Of a DNA stretch of 32,000 bases, positions 1 to 9,309 are shown piece after piece. This DNA comes from Delftia acidovorans NBRC 14950 (GTDB lineage Bacteria; Pseudomonadota; Gammaproteobacteria; Burkholderiales; Burkholderiaceae_C), in the NCBI RefSeq assembly GCF_001598795.1, contig NZ_BCZP01000009.1, forward strand, positions 257,876 through 289,875, in the 5' to 3' direction. A program made the position numbers and the translations under genes. Within the stretch, counting starts at the first letter, position 1, and each line of letters starts with the position of its first letter. The notes below the pieces were generated by a model. The model searched no databases. It was not told the DNA's origin and saw only the letters and a list, made by a program, of their open reading frames with translations.

Positions 1-2182
1 TTTCCAGGCCTTCAAGCTCCTGCTTCAGCAAAAGCGCAGTTTCCTGTGGCTCGAACTGACGCTGCAGCAGCGGGATGGTGAAGACGTAGCTTGCATCGTG
101 CACGCCGTGGGTTTCATCGCGGCGCAGGACGTAGGCCAGTTGCAGGCGCGCCAGGGACCGGCGCAAGGCCTGGGCCTGGCCGGTGGCGCCGTGGGACTGG
201 ACCAGGGCGTCGAGTGCGGTCAGGCTGGTCTGTCCTTGCTGGGCCGTGTGATAGACGGCGATGCGGTCCAGGCGGCAGGCCTGTTCGTCGGTGCTCAAGC
301 GGCCCCATCCCACCAGCGCGTCCTGCACGGGCTGGGATGCCATGGCCTGGCGCAGGTGGCGTTCTTCGATGACGCGTTCGTCGGGCCCCAGGGCTTCCAG
401 GCATTCCTGGCAGAGGATGGCGACCAGGTTGGCGCGCCTGCCGCTGGCCTCTATCAGCCGCTCGGCCAGAGCGTCGTTGGCAAAGCCCAGGCGCAGCCTG
501 CGCAGCGGTTCGGTGGCCAGGGCGTGACATGCCGCTGGCTCCAATCCACCAATGGCCAGGATTTCGCCGAAGTTGCGCAGCGGCGATTGGTAGTCGAGCA
601 GCGCTGCCGCGTACAGATCCCAGAATCCCGCCAGCATGAACCAGCAACGGCCCTCCTCGCTCAGCGCGCGCAAGGCGCTGAGCTGGGGGTAGCCATTGCG
701 GGCTTCGTCGCGGAAGAACAGGTCGGCCTCGTCGATCAGCAGGTACAGCCGCCTGCCCTGCGACTGCTTTTGCAGGTGTTCGATGATGGCCTCCAGCGGT
801 GTTTCCACGGGAAGGCCGAACTGCGTGGCCAGGCGCGGCGTAAGGCGGTGGTCGCGCAGCGAGATGTAGTGGCAGGCGATGGCCGGATGCTCCTGCAGCC
901 GCCGCTGCACGGCCTTGAGCAGGCTGCTTTTGCCGAGCTGGCGTCCTCCCACGACCAGGTAGTTGGCCGGTTCGCGGTTGAGCACGCGGGCCAGCAGGCG
1001 CTCGCGGCCAAAGAAAACGTCCTCGCGCGTCACGCCGCCGCGCGTCTGGTAGGGCGATATGCGCGTGACCTGCAGCTGCGTGGCCAGCAGCCGCAGCAGC
1101 ACCTGGTCCGGAGCGCCGCCCAGCAGCCATTCGGTCTGCCCCGGGCTGTCCAGCAGCACGTGCAGGTTGGCGCGGTCCTGGGCATGGCGCTGCAGCAGCG
1201 GCATGGGCGACTGGGGATGGTGCGAGCTCACGATGAGCACCACATCGCCGCCGGTTTGCAGCAGGCGCAGCTGGCGCACGAGTTCGCCCTCTTCCAGCTC
1301 CGCTGGGGGCGCATAGACCAGGCAACGGCCCAGGGCGATGGGCAGCTCGGGCGGCAGCGTCCACTCGAACATGTCGCCGGGCACGGGCCACTCGCCTTGC
1401 GCCGGTTTGCAGACGGCGGACAGGCGTTCGGCCAGCGCCCGCACGCGGGCGCCTGGGCTTGCGCCGGCAAGGCGCAGGGCCCGCTGCCAGTCCGGCGGGC
1501 GTATGCCCGCAGCGCGCAAGACGGCGGAACGGCGGCCGGTGAGCTGCAGCAGCCGGTCCAGCTGGGGCAGATGCTGGTAGGGCTTGCGGCGCAGGCGCTC
1601 GGGCTTGAGCTGTGCCGGGCCTATCAGCGGATGGCGCACCAGCCACAGCAGGGCCAGGCAGCCAAAGACCAGTGCGCTGGTCCAGATGACGCTGCGCAGC
1701 CATCCAAAGGGTTCATGCTCGGGCTGGCCCGGCGAGGGGCTGCAGTTCAGCGGCAGGTAGCGCGGCGGAGTCGGAGGCAGGCCGCCCTGGCAGCTCCAGT
1801 CCCAGCGTTGCCTGTCCAGTTGCAGCAGGACCTGGGTTCCGGCGAGCACGCCCATCTGGCTGTCGCGCACCACGTCCGCCTGCAGCACGAATGGACTGGG
1901 CGAGCTCATGCGCACGCGTGGTTCGGCAATGTCCGGCGCCACGCTGGCCAGGTCCTGCGGCCAGCTTTCATGCTGGCGCACATAGTCCATCAGGGCCAGG
2001 CGCCACAGGATGATTTCGTTCCAGACCCGGCCCGAGCTTTCCGCGCCCTGCAGGCTGCTGCGGGTGACGGGGTTGTAGCGGGGCAGCAGGATGGCCGTGC
2101 CGATGAACAGCGTGACCAAGGCGAGCAGCGCGGCGCGCCACCAGGATCTGGGCAGTTGCACAAGCCGACCCAGGCCGCTCAT
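1..2182 (-). CDS. Membrane-anchored P-loop NTPase (Arch_ATPase/STAND-like), 3'-truncated by the window edge; layout TM - pilin-like ectodomain - TM - cytoplasmic ATPase
   Basis: Not in the ORF track because it has no stop inside the window. My manual minus-strand translation from ATG (complement of 2180-2182) stays open to base 2 (727 codons) with GC3-rich codons. It reads MSGLGRLVQLPRSWWRAALLALVTLFIGTAILLPRYNPVTRSS ... WSCQGGLPPTPPRYLPLNCS ... FGWLRSVIWTSALVFGCLALLWLV ... FFGRERLLARVLNREPANYLVVGGRQLGKSSLLKAV (Walker A, about 923-949) ... RRLYLLIDEADLFF (Walker B, about 722-748). The start overlaps the upstream stop as ATGA. Confidence 0.75.
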   Translation of the reverse strand, partial: MSGLGRLVQLPRSWWRAALLALVTLFIGTAILLPRYNPVTRSSLQGAESSGRVWNEIILWRLALMDYVRQHESWPQDLASVAPDIAEPRVRMSSPSPFVLQADVVRDSQMGVLAGTQVLLQLDRQRWDWSCQGGLPPTPPRYLPLNCSPSPGQPEHEPFGWLRSVIWTSALVFGCLALLWLVRHPLIGPAQLKPERLRRKPYQHLPQLDRLLQLTGRRSAVLRAAGIRPPDWQRALRLAGASPGARVRALAERLSAVCKPAQGEWPVPGDMFEWTLPPELPIALGRCLVYAPPAELEEGELVRQLRLLQTGGDVVLIVSSHHPQSPMPLLQRHAQDRANLHVLLDSPGQTEWLLGGAPDQVLLRLLATQLQVTRISPYQTRGGVTREDVFFGRERLLARVLNREPANYLVVGGRQLGKSSLLKAVQRRLQEHPAIACHYISLRDHRLTPRLATQFGLPVETPLEAIIEHLQKQSQGRRLYLLIDEADLFFRDEARNGYPQLSALRALSEEGRCWFMLAGFWDLYAAALLDYQSPLRNFGEILAIGGLEPAACHALATEPLRRLRLGFANDALAERLIEASGRRANLVAILCQECLEALGPDERVIEERHLRQAMASQPVQDALVGWGRLSTDEQACRLDRIAVYHTAQQGQTSLTALDALVQSHGATGQAQALRRSLARLQLAYVLRRDETHGVHDASYVFTIPLLQRQFEPQETALLLKQELEGLE

Positions 2183-3429
2183 GCCTGCAGCACCGCCACG
2201 GCGGCTTCGCGGGCAATGTCGCAGCGCCAGTGCAGATGGGCACCCTCACCTGCTCCGCGCACCTGCAGCAGATTGCCCCAGAACAGGCGCCGCAGCACGG
2301 CATCCTGCAGATAGGGGCGTGCACGGCCCAGCGATGCCGCATCCACCAGCCCGCGCAGTTGCTCGCGCGTGGCAGGTTCCTGCGCCAGGGGCAGCAAGGT
2401 CTGCCACAGGCGGGCGCTGGCCACCAGATGGGCGCGCAGCAGGGGCGAGTGCACGGAAGCGACGCCCACGCCCTGCTCCATCAGCCATTGCAGCGCTTCC
2501 TCGAAAAGCGCGGGATGCCCGCCCGTCAGCGCCTGCAATGCCTCGATGACCTCGGCCGGCCAGGCCGTGCCGGGCCAGCGCTGGTGCGCCATCAGGGCCA
2601 GGTCTTCCAGCGTGGGATCGGGCCAGTGGGCCACCTGGCCGATGTTGAGCAGCGACAGGTCACCGCTGCGGTACTTGAGGTCGGCCAGGGCCTCGCTGCC
2701 GCACAGCAGCAGGTGCAGGCGGCCGCTGTGCATTTCGCTGAGGCTGCGCAGAATGCCGGCCAGTGTCTCGCGCAGCTGCGCCGTGCCCTGCTCGAAGCGG
2801 CTGACCAGGCAGAACAGCCGGCCGCCGGCCAGCAGGCGCTTTTCCAGCAGGGCCTCGAATTCGTAGTCCGAGCCCACTTCGCCCAGCCCGCATTGCCGGC
2901 CCAGGGCCGCAAAGTAGTCGGCCGCAGCCGTGCTCACGCTGTAGGGCGGCTGGATGTGCAACACCGCCTCGGCGCCATACTGGGCGCGGGCGCGCAGCAG
3001 CAGTTCCTGGCGAAACGGGGGCTGCCCCCAGTGCGCGGGCGACAGCAGCATGGTGATGGCATAGGGCCGGGCATGGGCCAGCTGGGCGAAAAGCCGGTCC
3101 ATGAAGCCTGCAAAAGGCTGGGCGCCAGCGGCGGCGGCCTGCAGCGGAAACTCCGTGGCAAAGCCAGCGGCGGAGAACAGGCGATTGGTCTCCGCCTCCG
3201 TCAGACGCAGGTACTGGGCGCAGGCGGCCAGCCGGTCGCGCGAGCGCGGATTGGGCAGGGAAACCCCATTCCTCCAGTTGTTGACGGCTTCCCGGCTCAG
3301 CCCGATCTCGGTGGCCACGCCCGAGGCGCTGGCGCGGATGCGGCGCATGTACAGCCCCAGCAAATGGCCGAAATCCTCGTGAACGCCTGGTGCCACGGCA
3401 GCTCCCTGTTCAATGGCGGTGGGCTGCAT
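2179..3429 (-). CDS. XRE-family HTH protein fused to a degenerate (Walker A/B-less) copy of the neighbouring NTPase module
   Basis: 416-aa track ORF with a true ATG at 3427-3429 and GGAG 8 nt upstream. N-terminal HTH: FGHLLGLYMRRIRASASGVATEIGLSREAVNNWRNGVSLP. The remainder aligns by eye with the ATPase core of the downstream gene, but has LLSPAHWGQPPF in place of GGRQLGKSS and LVSRFEQG in place of LIDEADLF. Confidence 0.8.
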   Translation of the reverse strand: MQPTAIEQGAAVAPGVHEDFGHLLGLYMRRIRASASGVATEIGLSREAVNNWRNGVSLPNPRSRDRLAACAQYLRLTEAETNRLFSAAGFATEFPLQAAAAGAQPFAGFMDRLFAQLAHARPYAITMLLSPAHWGQPPFRQELLLRARAQYGAEAVLHIQPPYSVSTAAADYFAALGRQCGLGEVGSDYEFEALLEKRLLAGGRLFCLVSRFEQGTAQLRETLAGILRSLSEMHSGRLHLLLCGSEALADLKYRSGDLSLLNIGQVAHWPDPTLEDLALMAHQRWPGTAWPAEVIEALQALTGGHPALFEEALQWLMEQGVGVASVHSPLLRAHLVASARLWQTLLPLAQEPATREQLRGLVDAASLGRARPYLQDAVLRRLFWGNLLQVRGAGEGAHLHWRCDIAREAAVAVLQA

Positions 3430-3447
3430 CAGCGACGGCTCCGCTCA

Positions 3448-3469
3448 GGAAAACAGCGCCTGCTGGCGC
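3448..3469 (-). terminator. Weak hairpin plus T-tract between the 2TM gene and the HTH gene (possible terminator/attenuator)
   Basis: The minus strand reads GCGCC-AGCA-GGCGC followed by TGTTTTCC. The stem is only 5 bp. It lies 19 nt upstream of the ATG at 3429. Confidence 0.25.
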
Positions 3470-3576
3470 AGATCCATCCTGCCGGGGCCATGGTCCGTAT
3501 CCTCATCCTGTTCACCCTCTCCTGGGATTCAGCTGGTCTTGTGCAATTTGTTTCATTTTGCCGAGCGCGGATTGTC

Positions 3577-4398
3577 TCAGGATGCGGCATCGCCGCCACC
3601 CTGCCCCGCAAACTCCCGTCGCGCGCCGGCCATGCGGTACAGAGGCAGCACCACCGCCAGCACCAATCCCAAAGCCAGCCAGAACCACAGGCCCTTGCCT
3701 CTGAAGGCCAGGGCCGCAATGACGGTGAAGGCCACGGCCTCGCACAGCCCGCGAAAGCCGGCCCGCAGCATGAACAGCCCCACGATGCCCTGCACGGGCG
3801 ACACGCCGCTCTTGCGCAGGCTGGCCATGGTGTCCAGCAGGGCCTGCACGGATTCCTGGGCCTGGCGGTCACGCTCCTGGTCCCGCTCGCGCAGCCGGGT
3901 GATGGCCATGGGCTGGGCCGGATTGGTCAGGGCGGTGCCGTCGGCGCCCTCTTCCTGGCCGGGCTGCGGATAGACCTCGCCATCCGTATCGACCAGCACC
4001 TGGCGCTCCGGGTAACGGGACAGCCAGGCGTGGTGGCTGACCCATTGGCCAGCATCGAAGTGGTAGCGCTCGCTCTCGCCCACCTGGTCGTAGAAGACAT
4101 GCAGCACCGCCGCCTGCAGGCCGTGCTGGAACAGCGTCTCCAGCAATCGCCAGGGCATGCCGGCCGTGGTGCGGGTGTCAAAGCCCAGCTCCAGGTGCTG
4201 GGGATGGCCCAGGGCGCTGGCATTGGCCCAGTCGTCATCCCACAGCGCGGACCGGTCCAGGGCGGGGTCCAGCTCATGGATCCAGCGCTCGGCCTGCTCC
4301 CAGGACTGCCGGGCCAAGTACTGGCAGATCAGTTGCACGCGGCGCAGCTGCAGGGGCGTATCGAAGAAAAGATAGAGGTGATGGACGTTGCTGGACAT
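3577..4398 (-). CDS. Hypothetical protein: soluble N-terminal domain, charged linker, C-terminal two-TM hairpin
   Basis: Same frame as track ORF 3577..4629. I prefer the start at MSSNVHHLYLFFDTP (ATG = complement of 4396-4398) because the upstream extension is R/G/C-rich junk. The C-terminus has hydrophobic spans IVGLFMLRAGFRGLCEAVAFTVIAALAF and LWFWLALGLVLAVVLPLY. I recognise no family. Confidence 0.6.
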   Translation of the reverse strand: MSSNVHHLYLFFDTPLQLRRVQLICQYLARQSWEQAERWIHELDPALDRSALWDDDWANASALGHPQHLELGFDTRTTAGMPWRLLETLFQHGLQAAVLHVFYDQVGESERYHFDAGQWVSHHAWLSRYPERQVLVDTDGEVYPQPGQEEGADGTALTNPAQPMAITRLRERDQERDRQAQESVQALLDTMASLRKSGVSPVQGIVGLFMLRAGFRGLCEAVAFTVIAALAFRGKGLWFWLALGLVLAVVLPLYRMAGARREFAGQGGGDAAS

Positions 4399-4603
4399 GG
4401 CGGGCCTGAGGCGTTTGCAGGAATGCCGCGATTGTTCAATTGCAGCCGCCAGCCGGCCCTCCCAGGCCTGTCCAGCAGGCGGCTGGCAGGCGCTCCCACC
4501 GGTTGACATTCTGTCCACTGCAAGAAGCGGGATGCAGGCGCTGCGGCGGCGCCCTAGACTGCGGCAATTGCCCACAGCGCCCATACCGCCAACCGCGCCC
4601 GCC

Positions 4604-5335
4604 ATGCACAACCTCCGTCTTTTCGACAACGAAGCTTGCGAATCCGCCCCGCCCGGCCACTGGACGCAGATGGAGCACCAGCTCGATGAGCAAGGCTGCG
4701 CGCGCCTGCCCGGCCTGCTGGATGCGCAGCAGTGCCGCGACCTGGCCGCTCTTTACGCAAGGGAGGACGGCTTTCGCTCCCGCATCGTCATGGCACGCCA
4801 CGGTTTCGGGCGCGGCGAGTACCAATATTTCGACTACCCCTTGCCACCGCTGCTGCAGCGCCTGCGCGAGCAGCTGTATCTGCGCCTGGCGCCGGTGGCC
4901 AATCTCTGGAACCAGCGCATGGGGCTGGAGGTGCGCTATCCGGACCGGCTGCAGGACTTCCTGGCGCGCTGCCACGCGCAGGGCCAGTTGCGGCCCACGC
5001 CGCTCATCCTTCAATACGGTGCGGGCGACTACAACTGCCTGCACCAGGATGTCTATGGAGAGCATGTGTTTCCGCTGCAGGTGGTGCTGCTGCTGTCGCG
5101 GCCCGCGCGGGACTTCACGGGTGGCGAGTTCGTCATCACCCAGGCCGATGGCGACCGGCAGCGGGCCGATGTGATGGCACTGGACCAGGGCGATGCGCTG
5201 GTCCTGGCCGTGCGCCACCGGCCCGTGCCCGGGCGGCGCACCGGCTACCGCCGCGTGGCCATGCGCCATGGGGTCAGCCGCATCCACAGCGGCCATCGCC
5301 ATACCGTGGGGCTGATCTTTCATGACGCACTTTGA
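4604..5335 (+). CDS. 2OG-Fe(II) oxygenase, COG3826 / Oxygenase-NA-like (predicted nucleic-acid base oxygenase)
   Basis: Frame of track ORF 4388..5335; start taken at MHNLRLFDNE (ATG 4604). An alternative ATG at 4532 would add an R/P-rich extension. Motifs: GEYQYFDYPLP, RPTPLILQYGAGDYNCLHQDVYGEHVFPLQVVLLLS (HxD), FTGGEFV, RHGVSRIHSGHRHTVGLIFHDA. Confidence 0.8.
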   Translation: MHNLRLFDNEACESAPPGHWTQMEHQLDEQGCARLPGLLDAQQCRDLAALYAREDGFRSRIVMARHGFGRGEYQYFDYPLPPLLQRLREQLYLRLAPVANLWNQRMGLEVRYPDRLQDFLARCHAQGQLRPTPLILQYGAGDYNCLHQDVYGEHVFPLQVVLLLSRPARDFTGGEFVITQADGDRQRADVMALDQGDALVLAVRHRPVPGRRTGYRRVAMRHGVSRIHSGHRHTVGLIFHDAL

Positions 5336-5338
5336 TGG

Positions 5339-5998
5339 ATGGCCGGTATGAGCACGCTGGATCTTTTCGCCGATGAACATCCCACCGGGGCCGAATCCAT
5401 AGGTCCGCAATCCGTGGTGCTGCGCGGCCATGCCCTGCCCCATGCCGTGCAGTTGCTGGAGGCGGTCGAAGGCATTGCGGCGCGGGCGCCGCTGCGCCAT
5501 CTGGTTACGCCGGGCGGCTTCACCATGTCGGTGGCCATGACCAACTGCGGCGCGCTGGGCTGGACCAGCGACAGGCGCGGCTACCGCTACAGCGCCATCG
5601 ACCCACTCAGCGGCCAGCCCTGGCCGGCCATGCCGGCCGTGTTTGTCCGGCTGGCGGGCGAGGCGGCCGCTGCGGCGGGGTTCGATGGCTTTGTGCCCGA
5701 TGCCTGCCTCATCAACCAGTACCTGCCCGGCACCCGGCTTTCCCTGCACCAGGACCGCGACGAACACGACCTGGGCGCGCCCATTGTCTCGGTGTCCCTG
5801 GGCATGCCCGCCACGTTTCTGTTTGGAGGACTGGCGCGGACAGACAGCACGGCCAGGGTGCCGCTGCAGCATGGCGACGTGGTGGTCTGGGGCGGTGTGG
5901 ATCGGCTGCGCCACCACGGCGTGTTGCCGCTCAAGGACCAGCCTCACCCGCTGCTGGGCGGGCGGCGCATCAATCTCACTTTTCGCAAGGCGGGCTGA
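5339..5998 (+). CDS. alkB: Alpha-ketoglutarate-dependent DNA/RNA dioxygenase AlkB
   Basis: Collinear with E. coli AlkB as I recall it: LDLFAD, VTPGGFTMSVAMTNCGALGWTSDRRGYRYS, PWPAMP, DACLINQYLPGTRLSLHQDRDE (HxD), APIVSVSLG, HGDVVVWGG, RLRHHG, INLTFRKAG. The start may instead be the in-frame ATG at 5348 (MSTLDLFAD). Confidence 0.93.
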   Translation: MAGMSTLDLFADEHPTGAESIGPQSVVLRGHALPHAVQLLEAVEGIAARAPLRHLVTPGGFTMSVAMTNCGALGWTSDRRGYRYSAIDPLSGQPWPAMPAVFVRLAGEAAAAAGFDGFVPDACLINQYLPGTRLSLHQDRDEHDLGAPIVSVSLGMPATFLFGGLARTDSTARVPLQHGDVVVWGGVDRLRHHGVLPLKDQPHPLLGGRRINLTFRKAG

Positions 5999-6700
5999 AT
6001 GGTTGGACGGTCTGAAATGGATAGGCTCAACGGCCAGGATCGCTTCGCCCGCCTGGATTGGGCGCGGATTGCCGCTGAGCTCGATGCCGAAGGCCATGCC
6101 CGGCTGCCGCAGCTGCTGACTGCGGATGAAAGCCGCGCCTTGGCCCGCGAGGCGGCAGCCGCGTCTGGCCTGCCGCCCTGCGTGCAGGCATGGCGCCCGG
6201 TGCTGTACGGGCATCTGCTGGCCCTGGCCAACCGCTGGCGCGAACACATGGGCATGATGCCTGGGTTGCCAGGCTGCTTCGAGGATTTCATGCGTCCGGG
6301 CCGGCAAGCAGGCCAAACGCAGCCACAGCCACATCTGCTGCGCGTGCCGCAAGCGGGTCATGCCCCGCTGCGTTCATACAGCGAAGGTGCGGCGGTGTTT
6401 CCGCTGCAGCTGGTGCTGCTGCTGTCCCGGCCGGGCCAGGATTTCGAGGGCGGCGAATTCGTGATGACCGAGCAGCGCCCGCGCATGCAATCGCGCCCCA
6501 TGGTGCTGCCGCTGGGCCTGGGGGATGCGGCCATCATCGCCACGGGGCCGCGCCCGGTGCGCGGTGCGGCGGGCTTTTACCGCGTGCATCTGCGGCATGC
6601 CATCAGCCGCGTTCACCGTGGCGAGTGGCTGGGTCTGGAGCTGCTTTTGCACGACGTGCCCCAGGCGCCAAAGGCTCTGCAAACGGACCGCTGGCTATAA
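5999..6700 (+). CDS. Degenerate paralogue of the 4604..5335 oxygenase (HxD iron ligands replaced; candidate pseudoenzyme)
   Basis: ATG 5999 directly abuts the alkB stop (TGA 5996-5998). It shares LDAEGHARLPQLL, VFPLQLVLLLSRPGQDFEGGEFVMTEQRPRMQSR and YRVHLRHAISRVHRG...LLLHD with the upstream paralogue. At the LHQD position it reads LRSY, and it lacks the GEYQYFDYPLP segment. Confidence 0.7.
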   Translation: MVGRSEMDRLNGQDRFARLDWARIAAELDAEGHARLPQLLTADESRALAREAAAASGLPPCVQAWRPVLYGHLLALANRWREHMGMMPGLPGCFEDFMRPGRQAGQTQPQPHLLRVPQAGHAPLRSYSEGAAVFPLQLVLLLSRPGQDFEGGEFVMTEQRPRMQSRPMVLPLGLGDAAIIATGPRPVRGAAGFYRVHLRHAISRVHRGEWLGLELLLHDVPQAPKALQTDRWL

Positions 6701-6701: not shown

Positions 6702-6727
6702 GCCGCGCCTGCAAAGGCATCCGTGCA

Positions 6728-7022
6728 ACAGGTGTCCGCATGCCAGCCATGGGGATGAAACGGGAACAAGGTGACTGCCAGCAAATGCTTTTTGCGCTGC
6801 CGGCACAGGCCTTGGCTGCCCCCGCAACGGTAAACAAGTCAAGGCGCTCCATGCCTGTCCCGCCAGTCTCCGCAACCCTGCGGAGGGGCGATGACAGGCT
6901 GTCACTGGTTCATGGCGTGGTCTGCAACATGCAGCTTTTCGCGGGTGGATTGGGAAGACGGGGCGCTGGGCGGAAGGCATGTCCTTGCGCCGCTTGTGAG
7001 CCCGGAGACCGGCCTGCTGCGT
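6728..7022 (+). promoter_or_regulatory. Cobalamin (B12) riboswitch aptamer
   Basis: Hallmark blocks in canonical order: GGTGTCC (6731), GAAACGGGAACAAGGTGA (about 6757-6774), GGCTGCCCCCGCAACGGTAA (about 6814-6833), GTCACTGG (6901) ... TGGGAAGACGG (about 6950-6962), and the B12 box AGCCCGGAGACCGGCC (6999-7014). Internal helices: GCCTGTC/GACAGGC and CTCCGCA-ACCC-TGCGGAG. Confidence 0.85.
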
Positions 7023-7026
7023 TTCG

Positions 7027-7050
7027 CGCCTGCTGTGCAGGCGTTTTCTT
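7027..7050 (+). terminator. Intrinsic terminator, probable expression platform of the B12 riboswitch
   Basis: CGCCTG-ctgtg-CAGGCG followed by TTTTCTT. It starts 13 nt after the B12 box and ends about 100 nt upstream of the receptor start. Confidence 0.6.
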
Positions 7051-7152: not shown

Positions 7153-9309
7153 ATGTTCGAAATGCATTCTTCCTTTTCCAGGGTTTCCAGCGCTCGCGCT
7201 GCCCAGTCCCTTTCCGTGCGGCTGAGCCCGCTGGCCCTGGCCTGCGCCTTCATCTGCCTGCCGGCGCAGGCTCAAACACAAACGCCCACGCCAACGCCCC
7301 CATCAACCGCCCTGCCCGAGGTCCAGGTCACCGGCCAGGCCGAACGCATCGGCCAGCAACTGGCCCAGCCTGCGCGCTCTGCCAGCCATACCGGCGTCTC
7401 CAACCAGGAAGTGCCGGCCAGCGTGGACGGCGTCTCTGCCGAGCAGATGCAGGAGCGCGGCGACTACGCCCTGGTGGACGCCGTCACGCGCACCGTGGGC
7501 CTGACCTCCAGCAGCACGCCGGGCAACGGCGGCCTGGCCTTCAGCAGCCGCGGCTTTGCGGGTGTCAATTCCGTGGGCGTGGCCGAAGACGGCATGGTGC
7601 TGGGCGTGGCCGCCGGCACCACGGCGTATCCGGGTGACAGCTGGGGCTACGAGCGCATCGAAGTGCTGCGCGGCCCGGCCTCGCTGATGTATGGCAGCGG
7701 CACCATGGGCGCCACGGTCAACGCCTTCCGCAAGCAGCCCAGCCGCACCAGCTCGGCCGAGGTGCTGGTGGGCGCGGGCACGGACGACACGCTGCGCCTG
7801 GGCCTGGGCGTGACCGGCGCCCTGGGCGCCTATGCCAGCTACCGTATCGACAGCTACACCGCCCGCAGCGCAGGCGAGCGCGATCTGGACCAGTCGCGCA
7901 ACGGCAAGTTCATGAGCACGCTGCGCTTGGAGCCCACGAGCGACCTGCAGATCGACCTGATCGCCGACCGCAGCGTGCAAAAGCCCAGCCGCTACTGGGG
8001 CACGCCGGGCCTGAGCGGCAAGGTGGTGGAGTCGCTGCGCGACCGCAATTACAACGCCGAAGACAGCGTGCTGCGCTATGCCGACGAGCGCCTGCGCGCC
8101 AAGGTGCAATGGAAGGCCAATGACTGGCTGACGGTGCGCAACGAGCTGTACCACGTGAAGTCCGACCGCCACTGGCGCAACATCGAGGCCTACGCGCTCA
8201 ACCCCGCCACCTGGACCGTGGGCCGCTCCGACTACCTGGAAATCCTGCACGACCTGGAGCAGACCGGCAACCGCCTGGGCCTGAACGTGGACCGGGGCTC
8301 GCACAAGATCGCCATGGGCTGGGAGGCCGCGCGCATCAACCTGCGGCTGTCCAACAACTCGCCCTATGGTGGCTCGTCCACGGTCTCGGCCTGGGATCCC
8401 GTGCATGGCAGCTGGGCCAGCCCCGATCTCACCGCCGCCAAGACAGAAACCGGCGTGACCCAGCATGCCCTGTACCTGGAAGATGCCTGGCGCATCAGCA
8501 ACCGCTGGCTGGCCATGGCCGGCCTGCGCCGCGATGTCTACGACTTTGCCAGCCACTCGCTGGTGGGCGGCACGGATTTCAACAAGACGCTGGCCGCCAC
8601 CTCCTGGCGCCTGGGCCTGACCTATGAGCTGGCCCGCAACACCCATGTCTATGGGCAGATCAGCTCGGGACACGATCCCGTCAACAGCCTGGTGTCGCTG
8701 AACCTGGCCAACACGGCTTACAAGCTGAGCAAGGGCCGCCAGGCCGAGATCGGCATCAAGCAGCAGGTGGCTGGCGGGCGCGGCGAATGGACGCTGGCCG
8801 TGTTCGACATCAAGAAGGACAACATCATCACGCGCGACCCGGACCGCCCGGCCATCTCCATTCAGGGCGGCAGCCAGTCCTCGCGCGGGGCGGAAGCCAC
8901 CGCCACCTTCCAGGCCACGCCCGCCCTGCGCCTGGAGGGCAACCTGTCCTATGTGGACGCCCAGTTCGACAAGCTCATCGAGGCCGGCGGCAACCGCGCA
9001 GGCAACCGTCCGCAGAACGTGGCCAAGACCACGGCCAACCTTTGGGGCCACTACCGCGTGGGCGCCTGGCAGGCCTCGCTGGGCCTGCGCTACGTGGGTG
9101 ACCGCTTTGGCAACAACGCCAATACCGTGAACCTGCCCGCCTACACCGTGGCCGACGCCGCGCTGAGCTGGCAGGTGGACCCGCGCACCACCCTGAGCCT
9201 GATCGGCCGCAACCTGGCCGACAGGGTCTATGTGGGATCGAGCTACGGCAGCCAGTTCCTGGTCGGGCAAGGCCGCCGCTTCGAGATCGCGGCGCATATC
9301 CGGTTCTGA
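7153..9309 (+). CDS. TonB-dependent outer-membrane receptor (riboswitch context suggests a corrinoid/cobalt-chelate substrate)
   Basis: 718 aa. Signal peptide ends ...LALACAFICLPAQA. TonB-box-like ALPEVQVTG. Plug motifs IEVLRGPASLMYGSG. Beta-barrel repeats and the terminal RRFEIAAHIRF with C-terminal Phe. An alternative start is ATG 7162. Confidence 0.9.
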   Translation: MFEMHSSFSRVSSARAAQSLSVRLSPLALACAFICLPAQAQTQTPTPTPPSTALPEVQVTGQAERIGQQLAQPARSASHTGVSNQEVPASVDGVSAEQMQERGDYALVDAVTRTVGLTSSSTPGNGGLAFSSRGFAGVNSVGVAEDGMVLGVAAGTTAYPGDSWGYERIEVLRGPASLMYGSGTMGATVNAFRKQPSRTSSAEVLVGAGTDDTLRLGLGVTGALGAYASYRIDSYTARSAGERDLDQSRNGKFMSTLRLEPTSDLQIDLIADRSVQKPSRYWGTPGLSGKVVESLRDRNYNAEDSVLRYADERLRAKVQWKANDWLTVRNELYHVKSDRHWRNIEAYALNPATWTVGRSDYLEILHDLEQTGNRLGLNVDRGSHKIAMGWEAARINLRLSNNSPYGGSSTVSAWDPVHGSWASPDLTAAKTETGVTQHALYLEDAWRISNRWLAMAGLRRDVYDFASHSLVGGTDFNKTLAATSWRLGLTYELARNTHVYGQISSGHDPVNSLVSLNLANTAYKLSKGRQAEIGIKQQVAGGRGEWTLAVFDIKKDNIITRDPDRPAISIQGGSQSSRGAEATATFQATPALRLEGNLSYVDAQFDKLIEAGGNRAGNRPQNVAKTTANLWGHYRVGAWQASLGLRYVGDRFGNNANTVNLPAYTVADAALSWQVDPRTTLSLIGRNLADRVYVGSSYGSQFLVGQGRRFEIAAHIRF

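Follow-up and report, generated by a model that had tools for sequence, protein, structure and literature searches.

A pilin-like domain held between two transmembrane helices and joined to a STAND-type NTPase in Delftia acidovorans and related bacteria

Type IV pilins are known as cleaved, polymerising subunits, and STAND and NLR-like nucleoside triphosphatases (NTPases) as cytoplasmic switches with C-terminal repeat sensors. A pilin can also take part in signalling: in the PilS-PilA pair the alpha1-N helix of the pilin is a signalling element in the inner membrane, the pilin being the ligand and a histidine kinase with six transmembrane (TM) helices the receptor. On the STAND side, inactive STAND proteins are a conserved component of the iSTAND ternary conflict systems, some versions of which are membrane-proximal (PMC7159879); these systems are defined by a pair of MoxR AAA+ and vWA proteins (Kaur, Burroughs, Iyer and Aravind 2020, PMC7159879). 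Here we analyse a stretch of 32,000 nucleotides from Delftia acidovorans NBRC 14950 (contig NZ_BCZP01000009.1, positions 257,876 to 289,875; hereafter the window), which begins with a gene that we call pilin-STAND. Its product is very probably a two-pass inner-membrane STAND NTPase, the first ~160 residues of which are a domesticated type IVa pilin domain.

The pilin-STAND gene is read on the minus strand from an ATG at window position 2182, which overlaps the stop of the upstream gene as ATGA (2179-2182), to position 1, giving an open frame of 727 codons; upstream of the ATG, an in-frame stop is found at a distance of 26 codons. The full protein, taken from GCA_000741825.1 (same genome, L001:11248-13446), has 732 amino acid residues, and thus only the last 5 codons and the stop of the gene are missing from the window. 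An earlier note on this DNA had described positions 1640-2182, corresponding to residues 1-181 of pilin-STAND, as a type IV pilin-like ectodomain without a prepilin signal, held between two TM helices and fused to a cytoplasmic NTPase. The protein and the strings quoted from it are found in the translation (MSGLGRLVQLPRSWWRAALLALV at residues 1-23, GTAILLPRYNPVTRSSLQGAESSG at 28-51, WSCQGGLPPTPPRYLPLNCS at 129-148 and FGWLRSVIWTSALVFGCLALLWLV at 159-182), whereas the strand, the middle domain of the protein and its partner gene had been overlooked.

Searches with the full-length query and exhaustive phmmer searches were the informative ones for collecting homologues. Word-indexed searches started with either the N-terminal 199 residues or a 51-sequence profile returned only 2-3 fragments each and were swamped by TM-rich candidates. 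The resulting family has ~120 full-length members of 700-750 residues, found in Delftia, Acidovorax, other Comamonadaceae, Massilia, Undibacterium and the Pseudomonas nitroreducens/Metapseudomonas otitidis group; the nearest named homologues are those of Delftia lacustris and D. tsuruhatensis (90 % identity), and closely related copies within Delftia share 84-91 % of their residues. When the N-terminal 199 residues were compared with 1.8 billion representatives by exhaustive phmmer, only 15 clusters were matched at E <= 0.001, nearly all of them having the same architecture or being pieces of it. An alignment of 51 non-redundant N-terminal modules of the family (A1) contains seven invariant residues: P34, W74, P75, G115, C131, C147 and P185. 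Two shorter proteins are likely pseudogenes or assembly artefacts: P0001 (222 residues, NCBI) follows the pilin module for its first ~107 residues with one substitution and then continues with unrelated sequence, and P0127 (351 residues) has the N-terminal module joined to the extreme C-terminus, with a scrambled middle.

Evidence for the pilin origin of the N-terminal module comes from profiles as well as from structure prediction. The profile built from the 51 N-termini was aligned to a bona fide PF00114 domain, namely one repeat of the metagenomic protein P0134 (133.9 bits), with an hhalign probability of 96.5 % and an E-value of 7.1e-10; the alignment spans the region from the end of the alpha1-C helix to the W-x-C...Y-L-P-x-x-C motif. 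When the 51 members were scanned singly, 24 matched PF00114 at E <= 1 (best 2.3e-8), and no other family recurred in these scans. Three proteins, P0116, P0119 and P0122, all full-length, pass the Pfam Pilin model with 27.3, 26.2 and 32.0 bits, respectively, versus a gathering score of 22, and their matches span model positions 5-108 of 108. The N-terminal modules of P0116 and P0122 are 35 % and 33 % identical to that of the window's copy; P0119 lies outside A1. A search with the family profile against all PDB sequences also placed pilins in the top three positions (K122-4 twice and Neisseria meningitidis PilE), with E-values of only 0.13-0.29; this search alone is not sufficient for pilin identity.

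AlphaFold2 predictions based on A1 had a mean pLDDT (predicted local distance difference test score) of 90.7 and contained three helices (residues 12-32, 38-71 and 160-182), a break at P34/N37-P38 and four strands within residues 90-133. In this model the head is made up of the alpha1-C helix (38-71), the W74-P75 motif and strands 90-96, 99-104, 117-123 and 128-133. All of the best 15 Foldseek matches in the PDB were type IV pilins, with probabilities of 0.77-1.00 and a best E-value of 2e-3: PilE from Neisseria gonorrhoeae and N. meningitidis, the Pseudomonas aeruginosa pilins PAK, K122-4 and PAO1, and PilA from Acinetobacter. Alignments to full-length pilins covered ~153-161 columns, alpha1-N included, and template-modelling scores normalised to the target were 0.41-0.59 for stand-alone pilin chains. 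The nearest structures were major type IVa pilins and not pseudopilins. Both the sequence and the fold evidence thus identify the ectodomain as a homologue of type IVa major pilins. The pilin likeness that the earlier note had recognised from the letters alone is borne out here by the family profile, by the three members above the Pfam cut-off and by the predicted alpha1-C helix with its four-stranded sheet.

The most conserved part of the head is the predicted disulfide-bounded D-region. Its cysteines, Cys131 and Cys147, are invariant in the 51 as well as in the 34 aligned sequences, so that homologues do keep both residues, and they align to the cysteine pair of pilins. The consensus of the D-region is G-x-P-P-x-P-x-R-Y-L-P-x-N-C, and it is the least variable periplasmic part of the protein, with a mean column entropy of 1.50 bits versus ~2.2 for alpha1-C, the alpha-beta loop and the strands. 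The corresponding loop of true pilins, by contrast, is exposed and variable; that it is conserved here speaks for a binding partner that is itself conserved and against an arms-race target. Judging from alignments and models, the pilin head appears to descend from a type IVa major pilin and to work like one, and it does not qualify as a filament subunit.

The reasons for the latter lie at both ends of the head. By Kyte-Doolittle hydropathy the protein has two hydrophobic segments and no more (19-residue windows that start at 14-18 and 164-165); the second of them is present in all family members. TM1 ends at the invariant Pro34, the equivalent of pilin Pro22, and does not have Gly(-1), Phe1 or Glu5. 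When pilin positions are counted back from Pro34, position +5 is occupied by Ala, Leu, Gly or other residues and never by Glu, 70 of 117 members have Arg or Lys at position -1, and Arg fills position +4 in 114 of the same 117 (Arg16 in the window, 2135-2137, minus strand). The class III motif G-[FMLIV..]-[TSA]-[LMIV]-[LIVMT]-E is found in 0 of 120 members, and PF07963 (N_methyl) is not among the matches listed for the 51 members. Moreover, the head's C-terminus is not free: it is followed by TM2 and ~550 cytoplasmic residues in all full-length members. With no prepilin-peptidase site, no Glu5 and a TM2 tether, the protein should be unable to be processed, leave the membrane or polymerise. In TM1 the ancestral alpha1-N helix survives as a signal anchor that is not cleaved, and TM2 is a new addition.

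TM2 is followed by the invariant or near-invariant residues H184-P185-L186 and then by a stretch rich in Arg and Lys (six in residues 183-205). Because an ATP-dependent NTPase must be cytoplasmic and these six basic residues come directly after TM2, the loop between the two helices should be periplasmic, and the invariant cysteine pair within it fits this placement. The pilin head is therefore predicted to lie in the periplasm and the NTPase on the opposite side of the membrane. The lack of a prepilin signal and the arrangement of two TM helices, both proposed in the earlier note, accordingly hold for the family, and so does the fusion to an NTPase. Residues 386-589 match AAA_22 (PF13401; 33.9 bits, cut-off 27) and nSTAND1 (PF20703; 29.0 bits, cut-off 27.1), and the NTPase is by far the most conserved region of the protein. 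Its Walker A motif is GGRQLGKS (residues 412-419, window 926-949), preceded by an invariant TRISPYQTRGG motif, and its Walker B motif is LLIDEAD (residues 481-487, window 722-742); G412, G413, R414, Q415, G417, K418, S420, D484, E485, A486 and D487 are invariant in 34 sequences. These features assign it to the STAND class and predict it to be intact. No TPR, WD40 or LRR repeat and no other Pfam domain was found in the region beyond the NTPase, which is too short for a repeat-type sensor and is presumed, by analogy with other STAND proteins, to be the helical/winged-helix part of the STAND module.

Between TM2 and the NTPase there is a further domain with neither a Pfam match nor a PDB sequence match. 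AlphaFold2 models residues 186-392 as juxtamembrane helices followed by an alpha-beta-beta-beta-alpha-beta-alpha-beta arrangement (pLDDT 88.7). The first structural neighbour found by Foldseek was HindIII (probability 0.94, E 0.035), followed by Can2, VRR-NUC and Mus81, none of them significant; matches to VRR-NUC, nuclease and resolvase proteins of viruses and phages were all at E > 0.05. The domain has no PD-(D/E)xK motif or conserved Lys, and the semi-conserved Asp285 is Gly in Delftia. A restriction-endonuclease-like fold is possible on the basis of the model; the resemblance is weak, and we do not call the domain a nuclease.

A homologue of one and the same partner gene lies directly upstream of pilin-STAND and is oriented like it in 10 of 10 loci, those of the most distant members among them; the loci are from Delftia, Acidovorax, Massilia, Undibacterium, Pseudomonas/Metapseudomonas and metagenomes. 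In Delftia the ATGA overlap couples the two genes translationally. The partners are 43-73 % identical to that of Delftia, which is a higher conservation than that of the pilin-STAND proteins encoded beside them. The partner is obligate for pilin-STAND. Its closest PDB sequence match is an XRE-type repressor (E 0.29), and sub-threshold matches to HTH_31 or HTH_3 (helix-turn-helix, HTH, families) occur at the same position in the six other orthologues scanned; AAA_35 reaches 23.0 bits in the Delftia partner, which is below the cut-off. The body of the partner aligns to the pilin-STAND NTPase from the Walker B strand onward (hhalign E 1e-4, probability 56 %). In Delftia, LLSPAHWGQPPF stands where the P-loop would be and FCLVSRFE where Walker B would be, DEAD having changed to SR..FE. 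Walker A is present in none of the 10 partners, and LLS-x-AHWGQPPF takes its place in four of those examined for it. The HTH matches, the NTPase alignment and the loss of both Walker motifs indicate that the partner most likely consists of an HTH module and a dead paralogue of the NTPase. The features of the locus are collected in Table 1.

Table 1. Features of the pilin-STAND locus, in window coordinates, with the evidence for each
Feature	Residues or size	Position	Strand	Evidence
Pilin-STAND gene	residues 1-727 of 732	1..2182	-	translation; full length from L001; ~120 full-length homologues
TM1, equivalent of pilin alpha1-N	residues 12-34	2081..2149	-	AlphaFold2 helix 12-32; Foldseek; motif counts
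Periplasmic pilin head (predicted)	residues 35-158	1709..2080	-	AlphaFold2 pLDDT 90-98; Foldseek; hhalign; Pfam Pilin in relatives
D-region (QGGLPPTPPRYLPLN), disulfide-bounded (predicted)	Cys131-Cys147	1742..1792	-	invariant Cys; aligned to K122-4 pilin and P0134
TM2	residues 159-183	1634..1708	-	AlphaFold2 helix 160-182; hydropathy
Juxtamembrane helices and alpha/beta domain	residues 184-385	1028..1633	-	AlphaFold2 pLDDT 88.7; Foldseek
STAND-type P-loop NTPase	residues 386-590	413..1027	-	Pfam; invariant columns
C-terminal region	residues 591-727 in window, ~140 residues	1..412	-	conservation profile; analogy with STAND architecture
Partner gene, XRE-like HTH and dead NTPase paralogue (most likely)	416 residues	2179..3429	-	sub-threshold Pfam; hhalign; synteny
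Accessory gene, 147 bp upstream of partner	273 residues	3577..4398	-	gene call in L001

How these parts might work together is a separate matter from the anatomy. The most economical role for the pilin head is that of a sensor, because it is the only extracytoplasmic part of the protein and there is no C-terminal repeat sensor. We picture a two-protein switch that acts across the membrane, a mechanism that we put forward tentatively and that is somewhat more likely to be wrong than right in its present form. The pilin head, above all its D-region loop, would bind a conserved partner in the periplasm or envelope, and binding would alter the packing of TM1 against TM2 and of the juxtamembrane helices (H184-P185-L186 and beyond). 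The altered packing would allow the NTPase to exchange its nucleotide and to oligomerise. The active NTPase and the dead paralogue would assemble together by way of their common NOD-type module, and the HTH of the partner would be held at the membrane or freed from it, so that transcription is altered. The middle alpha/beta domain could serve to couple the parts or provide a second output, possibly directed at nucleic acids. For the anatomy and this mechanism taken together, we consider the balance to be about even.

Several observations weigh against this proposal. The window's own copy has no direct Pfam Pilin match, and NCBIfam and PADLOC scans of its N-terminus were also empty; its membership among pilins is by transitive homology, through the family profile and the fold. 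The HTH of the partner is below Pfam cut-offs in every orthologue (in Delftia, HTH_31 at 23.2 bits versus 27), and the paralogy of partner and NTPase has a probability of only 56 % at E 1e-4, obtained with a profile of 4 sequences. The family is small and patchy in its distribution, with about 15 clusters at 50 % identity, and a TraI_2 relaxase is next to the Delftia locus. STAND proteins usually carry an effector rather than a sensor at the N-terminus, where pilin-STAND has a possible nuclease-fold domain, an arrangement that fits a defence protein as well. Finally, the signalling mechanism as a whole is deduced from architecture.

The wider setting of the two genes varies. Flanks differ between genera and often consist of housekeeping genes: metH and CTI flank the locus at a syntenic site in two species of the Pseudomonas group, DUF4132 genes flank it in Massilia, and a gyrA-like gene, polA/uvrD and sdh/recJ are neighbours of distant members. 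No type IV pilus, MoxR/vWA or recognised defence gene is adjacent to the module in the 10 loci. The product of the accessory gene is predicted to be soluble in its N-terminal part and to have a hydrophobic hairpin at its C-terminus, and gave no Pfam or PADLOC match; its homologues occur only in Acidovorax (46 % identity) and Pseudomonas pseudonitroreducens (34 % identity). Being present in 3 of 10 loci only, the accessory gene was rejected as a core component. A sigma-70 promoter scan of window positions 1-5000 returned none, and terminator-like sites were at chance level.

Just past window position 1, downstream of pilin-STAND, L001:13650-16687 contains a 128-residue open reading frame (ORF) and the full TraI_2 relaxase (871 residues); in two other assemblies (L002 and L003) only a 120-residue TraI_2_C fragment is found. 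The operon may lie on the margin of an integrative conjugative element in decay. On the other side, divergent from the operon and on the plus strand (window ~4604-6700), two PF09859 'Oxygenase-NA' genes flank a gene for an AlkB-like 2-oxoglutarate- and Fe(II)-dependent oxygenase, with a 205-bp intergenic region between these genes and the accessory gene. Further along the plus strand are a cobalamin riboswitch (RF00174, window 6713-7031, 70.7 bits, E 1e-15) and, downstream of it, a TonB-dependent receptor gene (7153-9309), followed by Peripla_BP_2, FecCD, ABC_tran and CbiX-like genes, which form an ordinary B12-uptake operon. Lactamase_B-family and DsbA-family genes are seen downstream of the module in Acidovorax and Undibacterium (L009:16065-17905 and L010:10422-12532), at distances from a few hundred bases to 7 kb. 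Their placement could be conserved synteny or coincidence; a DsbA protein would bear on the disulfide of the head. The plus-strand ORF at 98-2314 (738 residues), antisense to pilin-STAND, was rejected as a gene and is a shadow ORF of DNA with 69 % GC; several further long overlapping ORFs listed for the window are high-GC shadows too.

Among other explanations, an anti-phage or abortive-infection system comes first, unlikely as we judge it to be. The NTPase would oligomerise on infection, the TM hairpin and/or the restriction-endonuclease-like domain would be toxic, and the pilin head would be a decoy or guard for the receptor-binding proteins of pilus-specific phages. Defence proteins are commonly built as a STAND NTPase with an effector at the N-terminus, and inactive STAND partners occur in known conflict systems (PMC7159879). 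The only structural neighbours of the middle domain are nucleases of the restriction-endonuclease fold, but all of these matches have E > 0.03, and the domain has no PD-(D/E)xK motif, its sole candidate Asp being Gly285 in Delftia. The patchy taxonomic distribution, the variable accessory genes, the TraI_2 relaxase beside the Delftia locus and a Tsi1 immunity gene near the M. otitidis locus are also in keeping with defence; most loci, however, are situated amid housekeeping genes, and the Pseudomonas species share a syntenic insertion site. The three operon proteins gave no significant match in PADLOC-DB v2, PDC-S01 alone appearing over the P-loop (E 0.0011, 15.9 bits). Furthermore, the D-region, as the putative recognition surface, is conserved and not diversifying, and the putative HTH of the partner suggests a transcriptional output.

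The module could alternatively monitor the cell's own pili, which we find improbable. TM1 would pack on pilins of the membrane pool or on the assembly platform, and the NTPase would report the pilin pool or extension and retraction, much as PilS senses PilA. TM1 indeed keeps the A-x-x-L-P-x-Y...T-x-R pattern with the invariant equivalent of Pro22 and aligns structurally to alpha1-N, yet it is not more conserved than the head. The major type IVa pilins are the nearest structures, and to our knowledge all host genera are producers of type IVa pili; a type IV pilus gene, however, is adjacent in 0 of 10 loci. As a speculation, the Arg at position +4 (114 of 117) could pair with Glu5 of a true pilin, but the positive-inside rule alone explains an Arg at the cytoplasmic end of a TM helix.

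A related idea, and one to which we again give little credence, is that of a receptor in the shape of a dummy subunit. It would dock on the pilus platform, pair with true pilins, or be bound by tail proteins of phages that arrive on a retracting pilus, and the NTPase would relay the state of the pilus, or the attack, via the HTH paralogue. If true, this would be the first receptor built from a pilin and would give a STAND/NLR-like switch a direct link from envelope to cytoplasm.

That the pilin likeness is due to chance or composition, or that the protein is a genuine cleaved and assembled pilin or pseudopilin, is highly improbable: the missing Pfam Pilin match of the window copy, the PDB sequence E-values of 0.13-0.29 and the modest Foldseek E-value of 2e-3 are countered by the profile E-value of 7.1e-10, three members above the Pfam cut-off over the whole model, 15 of 15 fold matches to pilins and the invariant cysteines and W-P motif, and assembly into a filament is excluded, since 120 of 120 members lack a cleavage site and Glu5 and TM2 ties the head to ~550 cytoplasmic residues.

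The pilin-STAND architecture is real, conserved and undescribed: full-text searches found no description of the fusion in the literature searched, and pilins are not mentioned in the conflict-system survey of Kaur et al. 2020 (PMC7159879). A pilin that has shed its assembly features and is locked in the inner membrane as the sole extracytoplasmic part of a STAND NTPase is a new joining of parts. If the head is the input, as in the two-protein switch proposed above, it would represent a new class of periplasmic sensor domain and one of the few instances in which a STAND protein reads a transmembrane signal. The conserved D-region offers a defined surface to probe. Function is directly testable in this two-gene system, with tractable strains of Pseudomonas, Delftia and Acidovorax and with Cys131/Cys147, Lys418 and Asp484 as handles.

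Comparison with known systems places the family between several of them. With the type IVa major pilins (PilE; PilA of PAK and K122-4) the Delftia protein shares a hydrophobic helix that runs into an amphipathic alpha1-C with a kink at the Pro22 equivalent, G-x-W-P after alpha1-C, a four-stranded antiparallel sheet and a loop ending in Y-L-P-x-x-C. It differs from them in having no class III signal, Gly(-1)/Phe1 or Glu5, in carrying TM2 and ~550 cytoplasmic residues, in a D-region that is conserved within the family rather than variable, and in that no pilus genes are found near the family loci. The modular pilins, for example Streptococcus sanguinis PilB (PMC8179133), are similar in that a pilin module is fused to a further module; those proteins keep the prepilin signal, polymerise and have the extra module outside the cell, whereas here the pilin is immobilised and the additions are cytoplasmic.

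On the NTPase side, pilin-STAND resembles MalT, Avs and NLR-like proteins in its intact P-loop, its N-terminal accessory modules and its presumed helical/winged-helix tail. It departs from them in its pilin-derived membrane hairpin, in the absence of a C-terminal TPR, WD40 or LRR array, which is usual though not general in this class, and in its obligatory partner, most likely a dead paralogue with a DNA-binding domain. Membership in the iSTAND systems was rejected, as MoxR and vWA genes are absent from all 10 loci. The presumed inactive STAND protein here also has an active STAND paralogue as its partner. In contrast to PilS-PilA, where the pilin is the ligand, the pilin-like element belongs to the receptor itself. 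A second, unrelated use of pilin heads on a non-filament membrane protein is seen in P0134 (983 residues), in which DnaJ, RDD and TM2 domains are followed at the C-terminus by four tandem PF00114 heads with a Y-L-P-x-x-C D-region. Unlike the head of pilin-STAND, those of P0134 have no alpha1-N, are arranged in tandem and are joined to unrelated domains with no NTPase. The existence of P0134 suggests that the re-use of pilin heads may be broader than the pilin-STAND family.

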